From assembly GCA_040954595.2 (NCBI GenBank), contig CM082597.2, forward strand, positions 8,142,343-8,206,342: DNA of 64,000 nucleotides, written 5' to 3'. Shown piece after piece: positions 20,401 to 41,400 of the stretch. Both the position numbers and the translations under genes were made by a program. A model generated the notes under the pieces. It ran no database searches, had not been told where the DNA came from, and saw nothing but the letters and a program-made list of their open reading frames with translations. The first letter of the stretch is position 1, and each line of letters starts with the position of its first letter. The DNA comes from Balanoglossus misakiensis. Taxonomy: Eukaryota > Animalia > Hemichordata.

Positions 20401-23400
20401 TTATTTCGAGTATCTAGTTCACAGTATCACATAAAATGCCATGAATAGTGAAGGAAAAGGTGAAATCCAATCATTATATGAGTGCCATTCTTTATACACT
20501 GGGATCGAGCTTCGACAACGCGCAGGCAGCATGCCAGACAGTATACGACAACTGTATTCAGAAAGTACAAAGGACTTTGCATAACGAAGCAGTGAAAACT
20601 GGAGACCTACACATTAACCAATCAGGGAGCTGAAAATTGAATACATACATGTTAATAAGACCTAACCTACAAGGTCCTGCATAATGAGGCAGTGAACACT
20701 GGAGGACCAGACCTACACATTAACCAATCAGGGAGCTGTAAAGTGAATAATACATAGTAATAAGACCTAACCGACAAGGTCTAGTGAATAATACATAATA
20801 ATAAGACCTAACACATAAGGTCCCTCCAATCAGCGTGCCTCAAGTGGACCTAAGATTACCAGATGGACCAATCACAGATGTCGGTACATATGTCATGGAC
20901 CTGACTTATGAAACAGGACTACTTGACCATTGTGCATATAGAGCGGTCGTTCCTATGCGTCAATATTGACGCACTGATTAAGATATCTGCGTCAAGTGAG
21001 GATTTTTTGCGTCAAATACGCATACTTTTTGCGTAAACGCAACCTCTGATGGTGTGTATTAAAGATACAAGAAAAAAATCTCTTTTTGAAATAAACATTT
21101 CTCTGTTAATTATCAAGTTCTGTTAGTTATCGAGAATCCCCTAAAAGTATAATATTTTCTGAAAGAAAATATAGAAGAACATTTTGGTGTGACCATTGTT
21201 TACACAACTATCATGTGACAAGCAATTTAAATTAACTTCCAAAAACAAGTTTTCGGGATGTTTTGTTTTAACACTTTGAGACATCACTCAAATACAACAC
21301 GTTATCAACCAAACTAAGGGTAATATCTCTTACCTGGTAGTTGAGTTGGAGTTGGTAGGGTCGTAAGACCACCTGTTGTGGCTTTCAGAGTTGTTGCTGG
21401 TTTCGTAGTTGGTTTATTACTAACATCATGATATACTGTATAAATGAAATTGAAGGAATATTTTATATTACACACTGGACATAATGGGTGTCTATATGAT
21501 AAGAGTGGAAGAGTTATTTGACCAACTATATACAGATCAATTGCACTGAGCATTGTTATTGCCTCATTTGTGACATAGAGTCTGATTCAAACAACGATGA
21601 TGATGGTAACTAACAATGTATAACTGTTTAACTGTTAACATTGCAGGTATTATGAATTTTTTTTTTCAATTGAAATTTTCACTGTACCCGTACATGAAGT
21701 TTCTATCAATAAAGCCAAATTTTCTATGTTTTATTATTCATAGTTTACTTTATCATAATAGGAAGTAAACCTACATTTCTTTGAAAAAAAAGTGAGGAGT
21801 GAATATGTTTTCTCCTTTCTCCCACCCCTCACCCCCTAAAAATAATGGTGTCATCCAGGAGCTAGAGTCGTGTCAACTAAGTAAACAAGATCCATCCTTA
21901 CTTTGGAGCTCATAATGCTGAAAAGTGTAGAAATTGGTATACATTCACCTTTTGATGTTAACAGATCTGTCGGTGCCTCAGTTGTATGTTTTCTTGTTGT
22001 TCTTCTTTGGGAAGTGGCAGTATCATCAGTTATCATTTGTGTTTGCCATTCTGTGGTGCCTTCTACCGTTTGCCAATATTCTGTGGTGCCGTCCATTTTA
22101 TTTGTTGCCAAAAGTGTCTCTGGTGTGGTGGCGTCCATTTTGTTTGTTGTCAACAATTTCTCTGGTGTGGTCCATGACTCTGTTGGCATCACATCACTTG
22201 CATCGTCATACTCTGAAGTCTGGTCTGCAGGAGTAATATCCACAGATTCTGCTGTTGACATCATTTCTGTTTTTGAGATCGGAGCAGATGTTGTCTTGTA
22301 TGTACCCTCACCTTCTGTGCTTGACTGCTGATCAGGCTTTTCAGAACTTGCCTCTACTGTTGTCACGACAACAGGCATGGTTACTGTAACCATAGTAACT
22401 GTTGTGGTTGACTTGCTTTTTCCAGTTGTCACAGCCGGTATATTGTCTGTGTCCAACACAATTGTCATTCTGGGCGAAGTTATGGCATATCCATCTGTTG
22501 AGATGCTTTTTTCTGTGCCTTCGGTGTAGGGACTAGTTAAATATTCCAGCGTTGTTTCATCTGTTGATAAAAATGAACATTACAATTTGAATAATCTAGA
22601 ACAAGGAAATCTAATGTTATATTGTTCTCCACTAACATGAACAGTATTGAATCAATGTTCCTGGCAGGAGACAATTTCAAGGTATTCTCATCCCGGTGTG
22701 TGATTCAAATGATATTGTGTTATTATTCTATTGCTTTCTTTAATACAATTGTTTATGAGGGTGTTGAGATTTCTTATTCAAAATACAGTAAAATAGGAAA
22801 TTTTCGCGAACGATAAATTTACTGGTGAAAAAAAAGTCGCTTATGGTTTTCAGAGATAACGATGCAGTGAAATACCAGAACGTGAAAATTAATCACCACG
22901 TAACAGTTGCCACATTTGATATCATGAACATTTCCTCTTGTGAAAATTTTGCATAAGAGTGTACCAGATATTGGTGTGCAAAACACAATATCAGATATCA
23001 CAACTAATTTAACAAATTCAGCTATACTCCATTGAAATCATCAGCAACATTGACCTATGTTATACAGTAAACTAATTACATATTGTATAAAATGAAACCA
23101 TCTTACCTTCAAGCGTACTCTCAATTGTTGTAACTATTCCAAAGTCTGGAAGTGTAGTAACTTCAAGCTCATCATCCTCACAATGTCGAAATTGCTTGGA
23201 GGTGTCAATAATCGCACCAAAATCAAACTCTATAACCCTGTAGTTAATTTTACCAGACACCGAATAGACCTTGACATTGAGAGGGGCTTGTATATCACCA
23301 GAACCAATGGGTGGTTCAAATAAGTTATCACTGAGTCTGTCTAGAGTAATCCAGGGACCAGTTGTGTGGACTTCCACAGTGGTGACAGGGTAACGATGAT

Positions 23401-26400
23401 CCAATATTAATAAGCTGAATGATGCAGAAATGCTCTCTGCAAACTAAATAAACAAATCAATCAATCAATATGCAGTACACTAAAAAGATGAACGACACAG
23501 TCCCTGGTTGGTCCTAATACTTTGAAATTTAGAGCAAGACTTACTGTAAAATGGGTTATTTTCGCGAGCATAAATTTTCGCAAAATACGCAAGATCCAAA
23601 AAAGACGTGAAAATAAATGTCGTGTGAAATGTTTTTCAGATTTAACGATGCAGTTAGTGAAATACATGAACGCCAAAATTAATCCTCGCGTAACAGTTGC
23701 CTCTTTTGATATTGCGAAAATTTCCTGGCGTAAAAATTTCCCGTTTTACAGTATTTGCTACAAATCATTGTCAATGACCTAGTCCCCACTGGATCTTCCC
23801 TTGTCCATATCAGTTGAGACTGGTTTGATTTCCAGGAGATATAAACTTCCAGTAAAGAAACAGATGAACACTCTTGACAATTTAAACTTCAATCTTACAA
23901 ATACTTAATAAAATGGCTAGGGAGGTTTCAAACAAGTTTGCCAAGATGTGACAATTAAAGACAAGGGTATATAAATTAGTTAATAATTGTTTTGTTTCAC
24001 AAACCTTGAACTTGATGGAGACATCTTCAGGACAGGCAACAACTGAGTAGGATACAAAAAGAGATGAAGGACTTTCACCATCTGACAAGATGTTGTAAGC
24101 ATCCTCACTTAGAACCAGACCATCTTCATCAATCATGCAGTACGGGTACATGCACATGTCTGTTACCCGGACAACTACCGATACATCATTTGAACCAATC
24201 ACGTTCAGGCATTGCCCACAAACCTGCAATCACAGAAACCAAAATCTCCTTCTTTAGACAACACTGGAAGTACTAAAGCCAGCAGGGTTTCTTCAAATAC
24301 AAAGCGATTATATCAATCTTAGCTGAGAAAATAAAATAAACACAGCGCAACACACAAAAACGAACAAGATGAAATAAAATTATTCATAACAAAAATTGTT
24401 ACAAATCACAATGACTCGAAATGACAGACCATCCGGTCAGTATTGACATCACAGCCAATCATGTACATAGTCTTTTAAGAACTAACGTTATCTATACTTA
24501 CATGTGAATCTTGAAAATTGGCCTTACCAGCAACCATACTTGTGTAGAATGTTCCAAATGAACAGGTACCATCAGTTGGTGTCTCACTGTACTTCTCACA
24601 AGTTGCATTTACAAAAGTCTCAAAGGTACCACAATCTCTACTGACTGCAACAACAACATATGTAAACATAAATTCAATCAATATGTAATCTTGGTTTCAA
24701 TCAGAATCACACATCCATAAAAAATAATTTATGCACAAAAATTGAGGGTGTAATGTTATGTGTCATTAACGATACTGATTTTTGAAAAACAGGCCAACAC
24801 GTTTCGAACTACCGTATATTCTCACAAATAAGCGCCACCCTTGATTAGGCGCCAGTGATACCTGACTTTGCTACTTTTTACTTAAAATTAAGCGCCAGGA
24901 ATTTTTTTTTTTTTGAGGTGTGGACATACGTGAATCATGGCAAGTACTACCGGGGTAACACCTGTTTAGAGGTCTTGTCAAAATCAACGGGGGCTTGCTG
25001 CGTGAATAATAATTGACCTGAGCAGACAATGCATGCTTTGGGCTGATGTGCTATTTATTTACAAGATGAAATCGGGCACATGTCAACCTCCTAATTTATG
25101 TAAATTATTATTCACTGCAAAAGACACAAGTGCCGGGCGTCTAGACACTCGTCTTTTTCCTGTCGATCGATCGGCAGCCGCTTACGTTACCGGCACTACC
25201 ACCCAAGTTTGACCATATGGCCAGGGCTTTGAAATAATAGGACTAGTTTCAAGTTGTGAATGTTTGCGGTATTAATTTTCTCATGAATATTCACGCAACG
25301 TGAGTATTCACGCAACCTTGCCTGACCTTACATGTGTGAGAGCATGACAAAGACGCACTTGGACTAAACCACTATACGTCAGTAGATTTTGTTGATGGTT
25401 CAGCCAGCATACTGTAATGCTGCTCGTAGTATTCACTTCGTTGACAACTTTTTATTTCTGGAATATTTATTAGACAATACATTGAACTGACTGTATTCGA
25501 ATAGAAAATGTTAAAACTTTACATATGAATTCGAAACAGCCATTCATTCATTGCGGACACCCCCTTACGAGAACACTGATTGGAACATCCCAAATCATTT
25601 GCATATGAATCAACAGGGTACAGTACAGTATACAGGGCGACCCATGAATAAGCGCAATCGGTTCTTGAAAGACTCATTTCTGCTTTTGTTTAGGCGCCAC
25701 CAAAATTTGAAATGGTTAAAAAGTGGCGCTTATTTGTGAGAATATACGGTAATTTCGGAATTTCCGGACAATTTTCGGAATTCCTTTTAAATTTTAGAAA
25801 TTTTTCATCAGATATAAGTGTTACTATTTATTGGACATGTTTTTATCATTGTTTGCTTTTTAAGGTCATTCTCATCCCCCCCAAAAGCCGCTTTAGGCTT
25901 CATGTTCAGTAAAAAATTCAGCTGAATTTTCCAGGGATCACACAAATCAGTAAAAAATTCAGCTGAATTTTTTGATGAACAAAGTCTTTCAGTAAAAAGT
26001 CAGCTGAATTTTTCACTGATTTGTGTGATCCCTGGAAAGTTCAGCTGAATTTTACACTGATCACACATTTTTGGGAAGGTCTGGCGCAAAATAAAGGATG
26101 ACAAAGTCTTTCAGTAAAAAGTCAGCTGAATTTTTCACTGATCACACATGTTTGGGAAAATTTTCAGCTGATTTTTCATTCACTGACATTATCTGTTAAA
26201 AAATCAGCTGAATTTTTCACTGATTTGTGTGATCCCTGGAAAGTTCAGCTGAATTTTACACTGATCACACATTTTTGGGAAGGTCTGGCGCAAAATAAAG
26301 GATGACAAATGTAAATCCAATGTCACATTTGTAAACCTCTAAGTATTGTACACTCATTCTATTAAGTATATGCAAATAGAAAAGATAATTTTTTCGGAAT

Positions 26401-29400
26401 GTGGAATTCCGAAATTAGTTCGGAATGCGCTGGCGTATTTTTCTTCACCTCCAAAGCTCCATGACTTGTACACTTCTGCTGAATTTCAGCCAAATAGTGT
26501 GCATTTGGACAGTTGCTGGCAATTGCAAACAATGTACAGGACGTTTTTTCATAATGTCTGAAAGGTCCATATTTGTATCTTTTAGCTATTTTTATTCTGA
26601 GTGGCAACCAATAGCTGCCCAAGACAAGTTTACATGCGTAGTCTTTATACGTAGTATAATTACCTGTTGTTACATCATGAGAAGGTGTCACTGGTTTTGT
26701 TGTTGATATTTTAGTTGAAAGTGGTTCCAAAGATTTCGATTGAAATTCAGTGCATTCGGTGGTCAGTTCTTGGACACTAGTTGTAGGCAGGGATGTACTT
26801 GTATCTACATCTGTTACTATTCTTGTTTTGGATTCTGTTGACCTGATTTCATATTCTGTTGTCAAAGACTTTTGTGTGACTGGCTCAGCTGTTGTTGGGT
26901 TAGGCTTGATATCAGTAGTTGCTCTTTGAGCACTTGTTACATCTGTTGCAGTTGGGCCTATATCAGTTCTTGTTGCTGTTTCTGTGGTGTCTTCTTCTTT
27001 CATCGTTGAAAGTATTGTAGGATTGACGCTTGTTGTTAACAGAGTTGCAGTTGTGAAAGTCTCGGATATTGCTGAGCTGACTTCATCCTGATCTGTGACT
27101 ATAACATGGGTGGTCGAGTGGAGACCAGTTGTGACCTCTTCAGATGAAACTGTTGTACCACTTGTCACTTCAGTTCTTGTAGACCGACTGGTGAAGGAAT
27201 CAGTCTCAGGCCCCCGTGCTGTAATGTACACAGGCAATGTTGTTGGACCCTCCTGAGTAGATTGCATCTCATCTGTTTTGGCAGAAAGGAAACATGAAGA
27301 ATAAGGGCTTCTGATTTCTGACATAAATGTTCACTACTTGTATATAACATACATACATACATACATACATACATACATACATACATACATACATACATAC
27401 ATACATACATACATACATACATACATACTGTAAAACGGGTTACATTCGCGAGCGATACATTTTTTGCGAAATATGCGATAGCCAAAATACATGAAAATAA
27501 AAAGTCACGTAAATGATTTTTCGGAGAGAGCTATCCAGTAAAAATAAGAGAACGCGGAAATTAATCCTTGCATAATAACAGTTGCCTCCTTTGATATCGC
27601 GAAAAATTTCTCGTCACCAAAATAACCCATTTTACAGTACATACAGACAGACAGACAGACTAAACTGATCCCATAAGGTTCAATGGTATAACATATACTG
27701 GTATATACCAAATGGGAGCTAAACTATGACGCTGAAACACAATCTTACCTTCAAGCGTACTCTCAATTGTTGTAACTATGTCTGGAAGTGAAGTAACTTC
27801 AAGCTCCTCATCCTCACAATGTTGAAATTGCTTGGAGGTGTCATTAATCGCACCAAAATCAAACTCTATAACCCTGTAGTTAATTTTACCAGACACCGAA
27901 TAGACCTTGACATTGAGAGGGGCTTGTATATCACCAGAACCAATGGGTGGTTCAAATAAGTTATCACTCAGTCTGTCTAGAGTAATCCAGGGACCAGTTG
28001 TGTGGACTTCCACAGTGGTGACAGGGTAACGATGATCCAATATTAATAAGCTGAATGATGCAGAAATGCTGTGTGCAAACTAAATAAAAAAAATCCGTCA
28101 ATCAATATGTGGTTCATGTACATTCAAAAAATGAATGACACAGTCCGTGGTCGGTTAGAATATTTTGAAATTAGAGCAAGACTTTTTTGCAACAAATCAT
28201 TGTCAGTGACATAGTCCCCACTGGATCTTCCCTTGTCCAAATCAGATGAGACTGGTTTGATTTCCGGGGGATCGAAACTTCCAAAACATCAATCTTACAA
28301 ATACTGTTAAAAACATGGCTAGTGAGGTTTCAAATATTTTTGCCGTGATGTCACAATTAAAGGGAATGTTTACTTTTAAGTAGCAATTAAAGAAAAGGGT
28401 ATCTAAACTAGTTAATAATTGTGTTGTTTCACAAACCTTGAACTTGATAGAGACATCATAAGGACAGGCAACAACTGAGTAGGATACAAGAATAGATGAA
28501 GGACTTTCACCATCTGACAAGATGTTGTAAGCATCTTCACTTAGAACCAGACCATCTTCATCAATCATGCAGTACGGGTACATGCACATGTCTGTTACCC
28601 GGACAACTACAGATACATCATTTGAACCAATCACATTCAGGCATTGCCCGCAAACCTGCAATCACACAATCATGTAGCTGTCAAAATGCATAATTATATT
28701 TCAACAAACCAACTAACTCCTTCTTTAGACAACACTGCAGGTTTTGGTTTAAGTGCTTAAGCAAATTAAGCTGAGGAAATTTGAAAGAAAAACCGTGCAA
28801 CACACAAACTTAGACAAACACGATGAAATAAAATTATTCATAACAAAAGTTGTTACAAATCACAATGACTCGAAATGAGAGAATACCTGGTCAGTATTGA
28901 CATCACAGCCAATCATGTACAAGGACTTTCAGAACTAACATTATCTATACTTACATGTGAATCTTGAAAATTGGCCATACCAGCAACCATACTTGCATAG
29001 AATGTTCCAAATGAACAGGTACCATCAGTTGGTGTCTCACTGTACTTCTCACAAGTTGCGTTTACAAAAGTCTCAAAGGTTCCACAATCTCTACTGACTG
29101 CAAAAACAACAACACAAGCAAGATATTCTTTGCTGCAAGAAGAGTTAATTAACATCCTAAAATGGGTTTGTGTTGTACATTTTCTAATCTGGTGAAATGT
29201 GTTTGTGTGTAAGCTTTTATCATTTATTTACATATATGGGACCTTGTACAGTGGTGATATCATCTACAATTGATCAATTGATGATGTACAGCAGAGAAAT
29301 TTCCTGATTTGCGCTACTTTCTGATAAGGAAACACATATTTACTGGCCATGTTCGGATAACAGCATATGTTTGTGTGCCCTCAGGACTGCAAATTACCCC

Positions 29401-32400
29401 CAAAACAATCTGTTTCCATCGGCCTTCAGCCTCTAGAAACAGACTGTTCTGGGTTGACTCACAGTCCATATTGCCACTGTAAAAATTACATATGCCGGTA
29501 TACGGTATTGAGTATTTGCCATTTCTCTGCCACAAAATATATTCCTTTCTTAAATTTTGGCAATAAAAGGACAAATACTGATATGAATATGAATTATACG
29601 AGTACACAGTATAATTAAGCAATAATTAAGCAATAACCCCCGCCGCGAGATTTGGGTACAATTCGAGACATATAGCACGAGCCGTTAGGCGAGTGCTGTA
29701 TGGAGCGAATTGTACCCAAATCGAGTGTATACCCGACTGAGGCGGGGGTTATTGCTATTATATTATATATCAACAATTGATTTTGAGGCCTATCAGTGGC
29801 ATTTTCTTAACGAAACGGCGTCAGAAAGAGAAATAACGATCGTGAACCAATATGGCGAGGATGAATGTAAACACGAGCGGCCGGGATCGAGCATTAAACA
29901 TGAAGCAGACGACAAAAAATGACCAGACGGGCGTCGCGCATGGCAAAGTGACAAATATTCCTACACAGCAATTTCAAAATAAAACGTCCGTAAATTCAAC
30001 AGTGTTTTCATTTTTTTTATTTGGTTGAAATACACACGACTGTGGTTCAACCGCACGTTTTCACTACCGCATGCTAGTTCAGGGGCCCGTTTTAGCACTG
30101 CCAGCAGTGCTATATGACTATTTAAGCATCGCTGGATTGAGCTCTCGTCCAATCAGAATGGCGGAGGGTAGCATGATATAATATAATTACCTGTTGATAC
30201 ATCATGAGAAGGTGTCACTGGTTTTGTTGTTGATATTTTAGTTGAAAGTGGTGCACTAGTAGTTTCAGATGTTGTAAATTGTTCATCTGAATCTGTCGTT
30301 GTTTTTCTTTCAGTCACAGTGACTGCCTGCGTTGATGACGCCTCATAACCTGCATATGGAAATCAAGTCATTTTGCATTAAAGGGACAAAGTCTCTCTCT
30401 CTCACTGCCCTTTTTTCCATTAATTATGTTTGATGCAAGACACCGTTTATGTTATTCTACATGAGGATATATAGTGAATCAATGTTCGACCACACACAAC
30501 TTTCATCCCGTTTGTAGGATATAAGTCTAGAGTAAAAATCTCGCCCAAATGAATAAATGGTAAACACCGATTATTCATTTTGGCGAGTTTTTCACTCTCG
30601 TGTCTACAAGCAGGATGGAAGTTGTGTGTGGTTGAAGGTTAATTCACTATATATCCACATGTTGAATAATATAAACAGTGTCTTGTATCAAATATTATTA
30701 ATGGAAAAGGGCAGCGAGAGAGAGAGACTTTGTCCCTTTAAAATATGTGAGATTCCAAAGATCTCACTAATGATTATTTAATATAACTATACGGTAAATA
30801 ACTTGAATGGAATTTGGATGTTATTGCTACATTTTGCTACACAACCTGTACACACAGAACGTAAACTTGGAAACTGTGCAAATTTGTGCACATTTGTCTC
30901 TTCGCATAGAATTAGATTGATATAAACTCACTACTATTGTCATTTTCATGACAATTTAGCTCAGTTAAATGAAAATAAATTCATTGGTCAAATAAAATTG
31001 TATAGTCACCATATATCGTTAAATGTTTAAGAATGGTGAAGAAATGCTGACTCAGCTGGGTTTTTTTTTCAAGTATACAGTAGACTTAATTCATAGCCTT
31101 GTAAATAAAACAAGCATTTGTGACCCCTGTATTATACATATTTTCATTATGCTAACAAAGGAGAAACCAAAAATCCACAATTAAAAGAAATGAGATACTT
31201 TCACTTCCCCTGAGAGGACATCTGTAAGTAAACTTGTCATATTGTTTTCAGATATTCAGTGGATGTTTGTATTTGACGTACCTGTTGTATCTCTGGTTTG
31301 AGCATCAGTGTGTACTCTTGCTGTCGTGGTTACCAGATCATCTGTGTGTACTTTTGTCGCCGTGGTTGCCACATCATCTGTGTGTACTTCTATCGTCGTG
31401 GTTACCATGCCATCTGTCTGTGCTCTCTTGGTGGTTCTCATGACATCTGTGTCTGCAGCTGCTGTGGAGATTTTCATCCGCAATGTGGTCACTTCTTCCT
31501 CTTCTGTTGCAGCTCTATCAGTTCCATCCATTTCTGTCGTCCAAAGCTCTGCAGTTGACATGTCTGTGACCATTTCCGTTTCTATGACAATGGAGGCAAT
31601 AGAGGTTATGCTGATTGAATTCTGTTTGTCAAGTTTCACTTCAACATTCAAATAGCTTTTAAAGCCTCTCTGTTGTTTTGGAAGCGGGCATTCTGAACCA
31701 TTTCTCCATATATCACACTACATGAACATAGAAGTTATCACGGTACTGTTTCAGCACACCACGATGTTTATAACAACAGTATATACACACCAGTAGTTGT
31801 AGTAGAAGGTGTTGTTGGCAACACAGTCACAACATCTCCTTCACACATCAAAGTGTTTGGATGGTTTTGTGTGAATCCATAGTCACAACTGAATGACACT
31901 ATAGAACCAATGTCGAAATCATTGCCATGTCTCTGACCATTGACTGGTGTACCAGGATCTTGACATTCTCCCGAGGTCAAGAAGCAAAGTATCTTATCAA
32001 TATTAAATCATCAACTCAGACAGAAGTCATTCCTTTCAAAAACATTCCATATACATCATTCTACAGAATTCATTAGCCTTTTGAATTTCTATATAAGTTT
32101 AAATAATTTCTATGGACATCTATATATTTGTATGTAGTTTTCGAAGTTGCTTAAAAGGTTTTTCGGAAATAATGATGCAGTGAAATAGAAGAAAGTGAAA
32201 AAGTAGTAGTCGCAGTGTAACAGTCGCCTTTTTTGATATTGCGAAAATTTCTGGCACAAAAATTCCCCATTTTACAGTATTCAAACAACACATAGTGTGT
32301 GAATGTCATGAATTTCATCAGAGTATCACTATTTTCAAACAGAAGTGATTGCTTCTCTGAAAGTATTAAATATTCTTTTCTACGTTACCCTGGGCAACAC

Positions 32401-35400
32401 ATCTTGGTCTGGTGCCATTCCATGTTCCATCTTCAGTGCAATATCTCCTGGTGTTACCAAGTGCTTCATATGCCATGTTACACTGGAGTGTAGCAACACT
32501 ATCATACCAAGTGCCATCGCTATATTCCCATGAGCCATCTTCAATCACAGTCAACAAACCACAGTCAACACCTAGAAATAAGTAATTTGAACTTTTGGTA
32601 ACTCTTTCCTCTATATTGTAATCTTATTTTCTTTTGTCTGAGACACCCCATTTTTAAGGTGTTCATATTTCTCACACTTGTCAGGGATATTTTGACTCAC
32701 ACTCGCCTGCGACTCGTGTGGGACAGAAAATCTCCAACTCGTGTGAGAAATACAATCCCAGGTCCTTGGCAGTGAGATTCTATTATTACTGTTACTTACG
32801 TTGACAGACAGGAGGAGAGGAATTCCATCGGTAATCACCATCTTGACTGCTGTAGGTACACACTCTGACATGGCTACCATATAAGTTGTATCCAATGTCA
32901 CAACTGTAGGTCACTTCACTCTGATAGTTATAGTTGGGGTCATTGACCTCGTAGCTGCCATGATCAATACTCTCTGGTTCACTGCAGACAGCAGCTGTAG
33001 AAAATACACGTAGAGTTGAGTTGAAGAAAGAGCCTGGGATAAATCTGTAATCACTTTAAAGGGATAAAGTCTCTCTCTCGCTGCCCTTTTTCCATTAATT
33101 ATGTTTGATACAAGACAGCGTTTATGTTAATCTACATGTGGATATATAGTGATTCAACGTTCGACAACACACAACTTCCATCCCACTTGTAGACACAAGA
33201 GTGAAAATATCGCCAAAATGAATAATCGGTCTTACCATTTATTCAATTTGGGCGAGTTTTTACTCTCATATCCTACAAACGGGATGAAAGTTGTGTGAAT
33301 ATAGTTGAATGTTGATTCACAGTATATTCACATGTAGAATAACATAAACGCTGTCTTGTATCAAACATAATTAATGGAAAAAGGGCAGCGAGAGAGAGAC
33401 TTTGCCCCGTTAAAGGCTATGAAAAAGAAAAACCCCTCTCTTCTCACATTGAAAAGGTTACAGCAGACTGTAGAAACTGTATTTAGGCTGCATTCACAAA
33501 CACCTCTGGAGGGGGGGGGGGCGGGAGAATTCAATTTTTTTTACCGCTAATTTTCACATGCCCCCTGTACACAACCCGAAAAATTTCAAATCCCCCCCTT
33601 CCGAACTGCCAAAATTTTGAAATCCCCCCCCCCATTTTCTTTCACAGAGCAAAACACATCACCTAGTATCTATCTTGTAAAAAAAGATAAACAGCGCTCC
33701 CATGAAAAGAATTTGAAACTGATGTACCCCTTCACTGAACATTGTTTTTATTTTTGAAGTATTTGTATTCTGTGCTGGAAGACATTGTAAACCGAGAATT
33801 GAAGGGGGTGGGTTTGGGAGGGGGTGTCCCCCTCCCACGTAAGAGAATTTTATAAAATACAGAGCTCAAAGCTGCATTTTAATGAACCCGGCAAAAGCAA
33901 ATTAACTCAACTACCGGTATGTTGGGGAGGACAAATTTAACCGTCGCCGCTCAAAGTTATTATGGGGTTGGGGCAAGTCCCCTGACCTGGGACACTAGAT
34001 AAACCAATCAATGATTGAAAGGTGTTGATGAATGGAGGGGGTGGGTGTGGGAGGGGGTGTCCCCTCCCCCATTAGAAAATTTTGTAAAATAAAGGGCGCG
34101 AAATTGCATTTTTGTGGACTCAAAATAAATATTTAGTCGTCAAAGTTTTCAAGTCCCCCCCTTTCAGTCCCTAAATTATTTCAAATCCCCCCCCCTTACA
34201 TACCCTCAATTTTTTCAAATCCCCCCCCCCCTCAATTCTCCTGCCCCCCCCCTCCAGAGGTGTTTGTGAATGCAGCCTTAACACGCTTTAAATAAGCCAG
34301 TTCCATGCGGCTTTTTTAGTGCACGCCAAATTCTATTGTTCTCGGTACCAGATGTATAATATCAAGGTTTTCTGTTTTAAAAAAAAATATTGACTTACAT
34401 GTGCAAGTTGGGAAGTCAGCATCATACTGGCCTTCCACTGTACACAACAGAGTGGACTGTCCATTCAGTTGAAAACCCTCCAAACAATAGAATGTAATGG
34501 TGCTATTGAACTCCACCAGAATATCACCAGTTTCCTCTATGTTCCAGACTAGGGATCCTTCATGTGGATTTGGAATTGGGATTGGGTTGGAAATGTTGGG
34601 CACAATACACATCACGGCTGTACAAGATAAAAAGACAATATTGGTGAAGTACACACGAATTAATATTTGTTTTTATGGAATGACAAACTATAGCCATTAC
34701 ATAGGACACTAAATGTCAATCTTTGTACTATTCGTACATGAAACTTTTCTTTCAAATACAACTTAGAGACCAACATAGACAGTCATGCTTATATAAGTAT
34801 GACTATCTATTAAAGTAACTTTCATATCATGATTGTTGTTTTACACTGTGTTTTCAAAGTAATTGTTGCAGTAAACCAATTGCCTTGCTTGGAAATATTA
34901 AAAGGGAAGTCCTGTCCAGCTGATTTATGCATAATTTCTACACAATGTTTTTTTCTGAAAGAATGACCTCAAAGCTACCCAATTATGTAGCTGAACCGGA
35001 CTTCCCCTTTAAATGCTACCAGTGAGCTTGTTTGTCTTTGTAAATACACTCAAGTATTAATCCCCTTTTCCTCAGAATTCAATGCATCTTCATGCCATGA
35101 GGTGAGAGGACACTTTTGTTAGCAGGAGGGAAACAAATCCAAAATAAATAATAACAGTGCAAAGTTGGTCTGCTGACTTTCTCCACATTTCATTATTGAA
35201 TTACGGCAAAATTATGAAATCCAATTATGAAATTTAGCTTTTTGTCCATTTTTTTTGCTGCAAATTCATTGCATATAAAGGTCAATAATATGACAAATCT
35301 TGGTTAAAAGTATACAGTCACCTTCAATTTACACATTCCCATATATGGCTGAATGGCGTATTTGAGCATTCTAAAGAACATATGGTGGCGCCTTTTTTCC

Positions 35401-38400: not shown

Positions 38401-41400
38401 CTTTAAAGCATTGAAAGGTTCAGAGGACTAACATTTTTCTTAAAATCCGTCTCCTAAGTGTGCACTACAATGGCAGTTTAATTGTTTTCAAAAATATCAA
38501 CTTACGCTCGCATTGGGGCACAAGTGGACCCCAGACACCATCTGCTTGGCATTCCAATGAAGTCACATTATTTATAAACTGATAGCCCTCAATGCATTGA
38601 TAATAAGCAATGCCACCATACACTGTACTGGTAACATTGGTAAGAATTCCATTGCTGCACTCAGGGGGTCCACCACATGTTATTCCTAAAAAATAAACAA
38701 CAAATTCAAGAGATTCAAGAGACAAATTAAGTCTCTCTCATCACTGCACTTTTTTCATTAATTATCTTGGATACAAGACACCAGGCTAGGCATATTGGCA
38801 TAGCTGGTACGACTTATACACGGCGAAAATAATTTTTTTTCCTGAAAGAGTGACCTCAAAGCTACAAAATTATGTAGATATCAGCTAGACCGGACATCCC
38901 CTTTAACTACTGGATAACCGTCCGAGCATTGGAATGAGACAGAGACATCATACCTTCTATCATCTGTACTGGTCACCACGCCCTCACCAATCACAATTTT
39001 GGGACAGTCTGTCAGAACAAGGATCACAATGATAAGAATGCATGCAGACAAATACTTAAACTCATAAATGTCAGTTGTTTTAAAGTGAAGGGGTCGTCGC
39101 AACGCGTTTGTTTATAAACATTACAATTCATCCACAAATCCCTCAAATAAAATAATTCTTAGAATGAACGAAGCAGCTGACAGTATCCTAGACTGGCCAT
39201 GACAGCAACTGAAGATCCTAGTAAGTCGTGGCTGTCTAATTTCAGGGATTTGTGGATGAATTGCAATGTTTATAAACAAACAAACGCAGTGCGACGACCC
39301 CATCACTTTATTGAGTGTGATTCAAGAGTGTTGCCATTCCTGTCAATGGTCCAAAAATGCATTGCAATTGTAAAAAATTACTGTCTCTGTTTTTCCAGCT
39401 CATTGAAGTTTCGTAAAAATTCAAAAACCTTTGCACCTTTCACTTAATGACTCTAAATCACAAGGAATAAAGGGAGAGTGTGTTTCTAAGAATTCTGTAA
39501 CAACTTTTTCTGTAATGTTAGTTAGTTACTGTAAAACACTTTATTTTTGCGAGCAAAAGATTTTCGCGAAATACGCGAGAGCCAAAATAGCGTGAAAATA
39601 AAAAGTCGCGTAATTTTTTTGAAGATAAAGATGCAATGAATGAAATAAGAGAACGCGAAAATTAATACTGGCGAAACAGTGGCCTCTCTCTATGTCGCGA
39701 AAATTTCAACTCTTGAAAATAAAGTGTTTTACAGTATGTGTACCTGGTGAAAATGAAGCCCTGAATCCTTTTAGCTGGTCGTGTTCTACTACTCCTGAAC
39801 ACAACCGAAAAGTGTCCAATGTCTGTACGGCAATCGGGTGGTGGCACTGTGCCATCAATGACTCCATCAGAATTGCCACTCCATGGTCCAATAATGACAT
39901 CATCATCACTCTCAGTACCATTGTATACCTTCAGAAACAAAGACAAATTAAGCATGCATTGTAAATACCGTAAAACGGGAAATCTTCACAACAGGAAATT
40001 TTCGCGATATCAAAGGTGGCTACTGTTACGCGACAATTAATTTTCACATTGCCATATTTTACTGCATTGTTATCTCTGAAGCATTTTAAGCGACTTTCTT
40101 TTAAATATTTTTTGGCTCTCACGCAGTTTACGAAAATTTATCGTTCACGAAAATTTTATAGTATTCAATCCTTGTTGCATTTCCTGCTGTAACAGCTACT
40201 CAACATACTGTAAAATGGGAAATGTTCGCAAACAATAAATTTTCGCGATCTACGTGAGAGCCATCAAAACATGAAAATAAAAAGTTGCGTAAAAATGTTT
40301 TTCGGGGATAATGATGCAGTGAAATACAAGAAAGTGAAAATTTATTGTTGCATAACACTTGCCTCTTTTGATATCGCGAAAATTTCATGTTACAAAAGTA
40401 TCCCGTTTTACAGTATATATGTGATTAATTAAATTTCCAAATTGTGTTCCAAAGTTGTATAGTTTGAAGTAATGTCTGCCAAAATTGTCAAACTAAAATC
40501 ACTGCAAAATAATATGACAATTTTTTTAATATGACAAATATTTTTAACATGGCTGACTCATGATCATATCTGATACTCACAATGATGTAATCAACATCTG
40601 TGTTCCTCTCTAATCCAAAGTTCTCATCAAAGATAAGAGTTAATGGTCTTCCAGTTGGTTCCTTGATTAACCAGCTACACATAACATCATCAGGGTAAGT
40701 GCTAACATCATACCCTGGTGACTGAATCGTGCCAAAACTACGCAGAATTTCAATTCCCTGGCAACCTTTAAAGAAACAAGTGACCTATCGGTCAAAAGAG
40801 CTCTGCTGACTTTAACAGTGAAACCTATAGCTGGGCAATGATATGAATACCCTAGGTTTTAATCATAACAATTGTATTCTATTAAACAAAACCAAACATA
40901 GACATCACAAGTATTTAATATCCACATTCAGCTTGATTCATTGTGCTAAAGAAAGAAAGAATTTATTCCTAAAGAACAACATCAAAAGGAAGTACCAAGG
41001 TTCGAATTTGCATATTCATGACCCGATCAAAAGTCCAGGTAGGGGCACCATAACACACATTCTACCAAATTTCAGCTCCATCGTACATGTATTTAGGGAG
41101 AAGATTTTTTTACCAAAAATTCTATTTTTAGATCTAATTTGCATATTTATGACCCCATCATATCCAAATTAACAAAATCAGTCATGTTACAGCTCTGTTC
41201 TAGCAGCGCTGTAACAGTACTGCCAGGCCAGTCCTGTTACAGCACTGTTCTAGCAGCGCTGTAACATGACTGTCAAGGCATACATGGAGCATTCCTGATA
41301 CAGCAGTGTTCCTAGCGTGGTACATTGCAATAACAGAGTTGCAACATAAGTGAAACACCCATGTCATAACAGACATGAAACATTGATGTGGCATGACTGT

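Follow-up and report, generated by a model that had tools for sequence, protein, structure and literature searches.

The 64,000-nucleotide stretch considered here (the window; contig CM082597.2 of assembly GCA_040954595.2, positions 8,142,343 to 8,206,342) comes from the acorn worm Balanoglossus misakiensis and holds, on its minus strand, only the middle of a gene for an Uninflatable-like protein, neither end of the gene being found within it. Among the Ser/Thr-rich exons of this gene lie two three-exon units, A (29097-27749) and B (24644-23107), each in phases 1-0-0-1. A first-pass annotation, made from the letters alone, had read them as expansin modules of the two-domain kind built into an animal protein. 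Their exon structure is as it had been described: the quoted motifs are present, AG..GT borders flank all six exons, and the stop-free spliced readings give 231 (A) and 233 (B) amino acids, of which about 210 in each make up the two-domain expansin part. The neighbouring Sushi, EGF, CUB and HYR exons were verified by Pfam, and the serine plus threonine fraction of the Ser/Thr-rich stretches is 0.31-0.46.

The two units are a real tandem duplication. Their coding parts are 96% identical, with 21 base differences over 220 codons, 9 synonymous and 12 non-synonymous (omega 0.38, p 0.027), a ratio that hints at purifying selection on the modules. The introns of A and B can be aligned in blocks only, at 69-91% identity.

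Homology to expansins

The NCBIfam model of EXLX1 (NF041144) matches four of the six module exons, namely exons 2 and 3 of both copies, and in the expected order. Exon 2 aligns with model positions 39-109 (E 5e-7 in A and 7.6e-7 in B) and exon 3 with positions 119-193 (E 1.4e-5 and 8.3e-6, respectively). Exon 1 of either copy, taken alone, had no match to this model, and every single exon scores under its 100-bit whole-protein cut-off. The spliced modules were compared with a 198-position hidden Markov model (HMM) made from 27 bacterial expansins only: A and B scored 96 and 95 bits, covering positions 11-198; 200 shuffled versions of module A gave no reported match. An N-terminal DPBB/GH45-like domain, seen in the exon 2 match and in a predicted fold discussed below, is thus followed immediately by a CBM63/pollen-allergen domain, seen in the exon 3 match, and the HMM alignment places both inside one unit. 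The unit size of expansins is given as 200-250 amino acids in the part of the survey available (10.1101/637728). As judged from sequence, the units are complete two-domain expansin-derived modules, and the architecture claimed in the first-pass annotation stands.

Searches with single exons were less productive. On exon 2, the Pfam family DPBB_1 was found below threshold (E 0.005-0.007), with Barwin likewise weak, and on exon 3 Expansin_C was not matched; Pfam lent weak help for the first domain and none for the second. A search of PDB sequences gave three matches for exon 3 and one for exon 2, all four of them expansins; the best for exon 3 was Bacillus subtilis EXLX1 (E 0.0074), and for exon 2 the E value was 0.09. 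Word-index protein searches with single exons retrieved nothing, and exon 3 had no matches in a metagenome scan or, by tblastn, in plasmids. In the Atlas exon 3 lies near plant Expansin_C clusters (0.87), which is to be taken as a lead.

The orthologous module of Ptychodera flava, 62% identical to module A, gave stronger matches that span both domains (7WVR, E 6.6e-11; 4JCW, E 5.7e-7). Its predicted model (pLDDT 86, pTM 0.82) had expansins and expansin-family allergens in all of the top 12 Foldseek rows, at E values of 1e-14 to 1e-9, an agreement that is not independent evidence because bacterial expansins filled 26 of the 34 alignment rows behind the model. The modules thus share with known EXLX proteins (BsEXLX1/YoaJ, 3D30; the Talaromyces protein, 7WVR; the Clavibacter protein, 4JCW) a DPBB domain followed by a CBM63-type domain, a length of about 210 amino acids, a colinear profile and a matching predicted fold. 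They differ from EXLX in having two introns, in standing in tandem within an animal membrane protein of 4500-4800 amino acids, and in lacking the residues equivalent to Asp82 and to W125, W126 and Y157.

The host protein and the same fusion in other acorn worms

A full HMMER protein search with exon 3 returned four proteins. The best was an 'uncharacterized protein' of Saccoglossus kowalevskii (LOC100378937, 4825 amino acids; P0001), in which NF041144 finds three modules. Two more came from a region search: an 'uncharacterized protein' of P. flava (4527 amino acids; P0005) with two modules, and a second, shorter database model for LOC100378937 (P0006) with none. In the database models P0001 and P0005 the expansin fusion is at the same place as in the window, and the globular exons of the window are colinear with both, at 55-77% identity to P0005 and 41-63% to P0001, values that suggest a closer kinship with P. 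flava. The colinear run extends from the second Sushi exon (38685) to an ephrin-like exon (14309); its 28 exons, whose limits were set by frame and homology, all show AG..GT borders and together give 2158 stop-free codons. Three upstream exons (one CUB half, an over-long CUB half and a truncated Sushi) are excluded from this count. In P0001 and P0005 the two or three modules stand in a Ser/Thr stalk of 1300-1600 amino acids. Identity to module A among the embedded modules of these relatives is 38-62% (60% for exon 1 of A aligned with the P. flava module). Both window copies are of the P. flava module-1 type, and the divergent module 2 is absent from the window.

These relatives bear on whether the modules could stem from contamination or from bacterial DNA inserted recently. 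In favor of such an origin, expansins are typically found in plants and microbes, and contamination was raised for animal matches in the available text of the 2019 preprint (10.1101/637728). Against this stand the spliceosomal introns, one of which (intron 2 of copy B) carries a miniature inverted-repeat transposable element (MITE) of the host, as the first-pass annotation had noted; the in-frame, phase-1 joints to animal exons; the orthologous fusions in the S. kowalevskii and P. flava genomes; and an identity of at most 30% to any of the 27 bacterial rows used for comparison. We attach next to no probability to contamination.

As for the host, Pfam applied to P0001, P0005 and P0006 gives an inventory of 3 CUB, 8 Sushi, 2 HYR, ephrin-receptor-like repeats, an EGF array and LamG/pentraxin domains. 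Both relatives have a C-terminal hydrophobic segment with NPMY, and in all three species a basic furin-type site follows the stalk at the same place. Drosophila Uninflatable (Uif) is described, in the portion of the source at hand, as a large transmembrane protein with 3 CUB, 8 CCP/Sushi, HYR and many EGF domains (PMC3340373). Three CUB, eight Sushi, HYR, the EGF array and a single transmembrane segment are all present in P0005 and P0006; of this set the window contains one CUB, a Sushi run, one HYR and one ephrin-like repeat. The likeness is one of domains, as the proteins were compared by inventory and not by sequence, and it has exceptions: Uif has two FA58C and three HYR domains, whereas the hemichordate proteins have two HYR and, by Pfam, no FA58C. 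The FA58C negative (P0001, P0005 and P0006) is a weak one, the same scans having also missed a C-type lectin and an LDLa domain that are seen by eye at the N-terminus of P0001.

The domain content fits an Uninflatable-like host. The first-pass annotation had called the host SVEP1-like, and this was not supported. SVEP1 is a secreted protein that starts with vWFA, has about 34 Sushi domains and is not known to have a CUB domain or a membrane anchor. SVEP1/polydom does share Sushi, EGF, HYR, ephrin-receptor-like and pentraxin domains with the hemichordate proteins, but the latter have 3 CUB, 8 Sushi and a transmembrane tail, and no vWFA match by Pfam.

Relation to other expansins

Three further proteins (P0002, P0003 and P0004) have two tandem expansin modules each. 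Those of P0004 are degenerate; this protein also has a stalk rich in Thr and, at the C-terminal end, a hydrophobic segment. The second module of P0002 shares 45% identity with the closest bacterial row and keeps Asp82 and three aromatics (Y/W and Y157); in the Atlas P0002 is equally near bacterial, fungal and plant clusters.

A tree was made of 40 rows, 27 bacterial (chosen without near-duplicates and partial matches) and 13 other. The seven embedded modules (two from the window, three from P0001 and two from P0005) form one group (99/96). With the six modules of P0002-P0004, among which they are nested, they form a group of 13 (96/94) that is separate from all 27 bacterial rows. The tree cannot name a donor because its named comparison rows are bacterial only (there being no fungal, amoebozoan or plant rows), it is unrooted, and its bootstrap had not settled. 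The horizontal acquisition suggested in the first-pass annotation is compatible with this tree but is not shown by it.

Expansins have been annotated in animals before. In Exaiptasia, AIPGENE19685 (749 amino acids, secreted and up in the pedal disc) is annotated as Expansin-YoaJ with an invertebrate chitin-binding domain, according to the accessible sections of PMC6626399. For Oikopleura and some bivalve annotations, contamination was not excluded in the accessible text of the 2019 preprint (10.1101/637728). These cases also place a two-domain expansin in an animal, but as annotations, and none is in a Uif-type receptor. Microbial expansins have fusion partners such as GH5, CBM1, CBM2, CBM32, dockerin and discoidin (excerpts of PMC5072189 and 10.1101/637728), and the partners named in those excerpts of the preprint are carbohydrate-active only.

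The fusion itself was not found described in the literature covered on expansins in animals and on Uif, a coverage that leaves out most subscription journals and an animal list (Supplemental Table 3 of 10.1101/637728) that may include hemichordates. The search terms were absent from the supplements of two hemichordate papers (PMC12768270 and PMC11175523), and the parts available of PMC12867482, PMC13178913 and PMC6006793 have nothing on an animal expansin fusion. The fusion sequences were already public under the label 'uncharacterized'; what is new is the expansin scaffold in a Uif-type receptor.

Loss of the cellulose-related residues

Residue columns were mapped through the motifs of a Clostridium row, the Asp82 column being anchored by a D78N mutant chain and the platform numbering taken from the 2bh0 alignment. 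The numbers Thr12, Asp71 and Lys119 are assigned by motif, in part with passages of PMC5072189. All 27 bacterial rows of the alignment have Asp82; none of the seven embedded modules does, Val (six) or Ala (one) taking its place. The platform columns follow suit: aromatics at W125, W126 and Y157 occur in 22, 26 and 21 of the 27 bacterial rows, respectively, and in no embedded module. According to the excerpts of PMC5072189, Asp82 is required for wall loosening, D82A and D82N being inactive, and W125, W126 and Y157 form the platform that contacts cellohexaose. Since Asp82 and the three aromatics are gone in all embedded modules, cellulose binding or loosening by them is unlikely.

Other features have been kept in all seven embedded modules, namely the cysteines, the CGQC and HRYP motifs and Asp71. 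Six of the seven have Glu at the Thr12 column, and an acidic patch preceding the old Asp82 position is also shared. All seven modules are acidic (pI 4.1-4.7). By their sequence, the embedded modules are expansin-derived but, by the two features tested, not canonical expansins.

The modules might nevertheless still be cellulose- or glucan-binding expansins that serve deposit feeding, as a receptor or a loosener of plant or algal detritus. Acorn worms feed by mucus on sediment, the whole two-domain module is retained together with Asp71, and the related second module of P0002 keeps Asp82 as well as Y/W and Y157. With the loosening aspartate and the cellulose platform missing from every embedded copy, we consider such a role improbable. 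The polysaccharide binding suggested in the first-pass annotation is weakened as far as binding of the expansin kind is concerned.

A proposed role for the modules

We favor the view, which we hold to be the probable one, that the modules are repurposed binding units that do not loosen walls, have a ligand other than cellulose, and are carried in the Ser/Thr stalk of a Uif-like surface protein. The fusion would have arisen in an acorn-worm ancestor, when a tandem double expansin of an older family was placed behind the eighth Sushi domain. Copy number would then have changed by lineage, to three in one, to two in another, and in the window to two young copies of a single type. The full-length product is predicted to be a single-pass surface protein, whose stalk, if O-glycosylated, would hold the acidic modules off the epithelium. 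If the conserved RKRR site is cleaved, the outer half could either remain loosely attached or be released into mucus, and the ligands of the modules there would be glycoproteins of the mucus or the surfaces of microbes.

It is also conceivable that the modules are passive, as rigid disulfide-locked spacers or protease-resistant beads in the mucin stalk that have no specific ligand. Every known functional surface residue has been lost, copy number and sequence seem free to vary by lineage (38-62% identity to module A, as given above), and one gene model, P0006, has no modules. A mere spacer would not readily account for modules that were retained and re-duplicated in three lineages, or for the Glu at the Thr12 column and the acidic patch, which are shared in a way unlike core residues. 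We regard passivity as unlikely, if less so than a role in cellulose binding.

Several observations weigh against repurposed binding units in a Uif-like host, or against the evidence used for them. Neither a ligand nor a site of expression nor a transcript was seen. P0006 skips residues 1270-2965 of P0001 (1696 residues), all three modules included, so the modules may be included optionally, or the difference may lie in how the gene was modelled. Some expansins possibly function without Asp82, as the consulted passages of PMC5072189 allow. The fold match is partly circular, for the reason given above, and comes from a model of the P. flava module rather than the window's own. The Foldseek comparison proposed in the first-pass annotation accordingly succeeded with the P. 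flava module and fell short with the window: the model of its exon 3 had no match at E <= 0.001 (best 0.005), its weak top eight rows being seven expansin chains and Phl p 2. The omega value comes from just 21 changes, and orthology to fly Uif is based on domain inventory alone.

A bolder version of the repurposing proposal, which we put forward as tentative, starts from the position of the second FA58C of fly Uif, after the eighth Sushi domain. In acorn worms this sugar-binding discoidin slot may have been taken over by tandem expansin modules from a genuinely animal expansin family that had gone unnoticed; the embedded ones may have gained a new ligand specificity, while some secreted members may keep the full loosening residue set (the second module of P0002).

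Expansins are regarded as plant and microbial tools. The survey, in its available portion, left open whether the animal matches come from gut contamination or from genuine genes (10.1101/637728). In three hemichordate genomes the modules are split by introns and joined in frame to a conserved receptor, which settles genuineness for one phylum. An expansin fold retained after the loss of its known working residues offers a direct test of other ligands for the scaffold. The fusion would also connect the Uif type of protein, which is developmental and a Notch modulator in flies, with the mucus surface of a deuterostome.

State of this locus

The features of the locus are collected in Table 1.

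Table 1. Exons of the Uninflatable-like fragment and associated features, with positions in the window
Feature	Position	Strand	Remarks
Third CUB domain, two exons	40765-39744	minus	First half intact; from Pfam and relatives
First Sushi exon, truncated	39008-38884	minus	About 30 aa lost; reads into a stop
Nine in-frame exons	38685-31791	minus	Sushi x3, EGF x2, Sushi x4 (Pfam); P0001 644-1185, P0005 641-1185
Two Ser/Thr-rich exons before module A	31581-31282, 30349-30191	minus	Phase 1-1; S+T 0.31, 0.46
Module A exon 1	29097-28955	minus	143 nt, phase 1 to 0; N-terminal part of DPBB domain
Module A exon 2	28655-28437	minus	219 nt, phase 0 to 0; DPBB core, Val at Asp82 position
Module A exon 3	28079-27749	minus	331 nt, phase 0 to 1; CBM63-type domain and linker, without W125/W126/Y157 aromatics
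Ser/Thr-rich exon between modules	27272-26664	minus	202 aa; S+T 0.40
Module B exon 1	24644-24502	minus	AG..GT, phase 1 to 0
Module B exon 2	24223-24005	minus	DPBB core
Host MITE	23539-23757	.	Within intron 2 of copy B, missing from copy A; 14 more matches in window
Module B exon 3	23443-23107	minus	337 nt; CBM63-type domain
Two Ser/Thr-rich exons after module B	22560-21949, 21435-21334	minus	S+T 0.34, 0.33
Eight in-frame exons	18949-14309	minus	Unassigned domain, RKRR site, HYR, Sushi-like, second unassigned domain, one ephrin-receptor-like repeat
C8 second half	13482-13305	minus	Pfam E 2e-16; phase-0 acceptor, no fitting upstream exon nearby; then three EGF exons

The last Sushi of the nine-exon run is shortened and continues into the stalk, as it does in both relatives. 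The RKRR furin-type site is in the minus-strand exon 17495-17397. Two Cys-bracketed domains of about 150-160 amino acids (18949-17960 and 15578-14759, minus) are conserved in both relatives; the three stretches of them scanned with Pfam had no match.

Whether the window copy is itself a working gene is a separate matter, as the fusion does not depend on the integrity of this locus, being present in two other genomes. We consider it likely that the window copy arose by a recent partial duplication and does not function, or else reflects a misjoined scaffold, and that it stands among assorted gene fragments while the working gene is located elsewhere. Residues 1-451 of P0005 have no match anywhere in the window, and residues 3005-4527 have a match to one ephrin-like exon only. 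The second CUB exon (39928-39744) is one base too long within an A-run (near 39775) when compared with both relatives, which gives a +1 frameshift; the first Sushi is truncated, and a contig of another haplotype also crosses the truncation without a matching insertion; and the acceptor at 31967 is weak. Downstream, the half C8 exon is in phase 0 and does not fit the phase-1 donor of the last Uif-like exon, and upstream there is a frameshifted Gln-rich fragment. On the other side of the balance are the 28 consecutive exons, which run through their 2158 codons with neither stop nor frameshift, and the omega between A and B. The frameshift in the A-run could be a sequencing error, and skipping of the damaged exons and of the C8 exon could give an in-frame chimera with VWC/EGF exons.

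The contigs compared with the window come from one public sample of one study (runs X1, X2); they run through introns and differ from the window by about 1-2% of bases. They join exon B3 to its intron and the next Ser/Thr exon. Depth over copy A is 0.08-0.99 in this sample, a figure that has no bearing on the presence of copy A. In the intron preceding module B, about 1.65 kb (24793-26459) are skipped in a contig of another haplotype, and this segment is likely a polymorphic insertion with internal repeats.

The MITE family of about 215 bp, with TACTGTAAA termini, occurs at 23539-23757 and at 14 other sites. A second family of about 360 bp is found, for example, at 30378-30742 and 33056-33414. 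The intron that follows the final Ser/Thr exon contains a long inverted repeat pair (19377-19677/20578-20871; 89%) with internal repeats of about 105 bp, probably a transposon.

Upstream of the Uif-like exons, the minus-strand segment 42324-42115 has a Gln-rich open frame, is Thr-rich in another frame and has a donor site. All three frames are nevertheless closed between its likely acceptor and the run of Gln, and the segment resembles a broken piece of some unrelated gene. A calcium-binding EGF exon (44291-44182, minus) stops short of its last cysteine. The Uif-like fragment is bordered to either side by VWC, EGF and C8 exons (Pfam) unrelated to it, among them two clusters of VWC exons (63960-54800 and 9200-89, minus). 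Two blocks are duplicated between the clusters at 96-98% identity (4499-5813/54779-56090, 95.7%; 8180-8794/60388-61003, 97.7%), and the exons in between differ, a pattern that suggests exon shuffling in a kielin-like gene.

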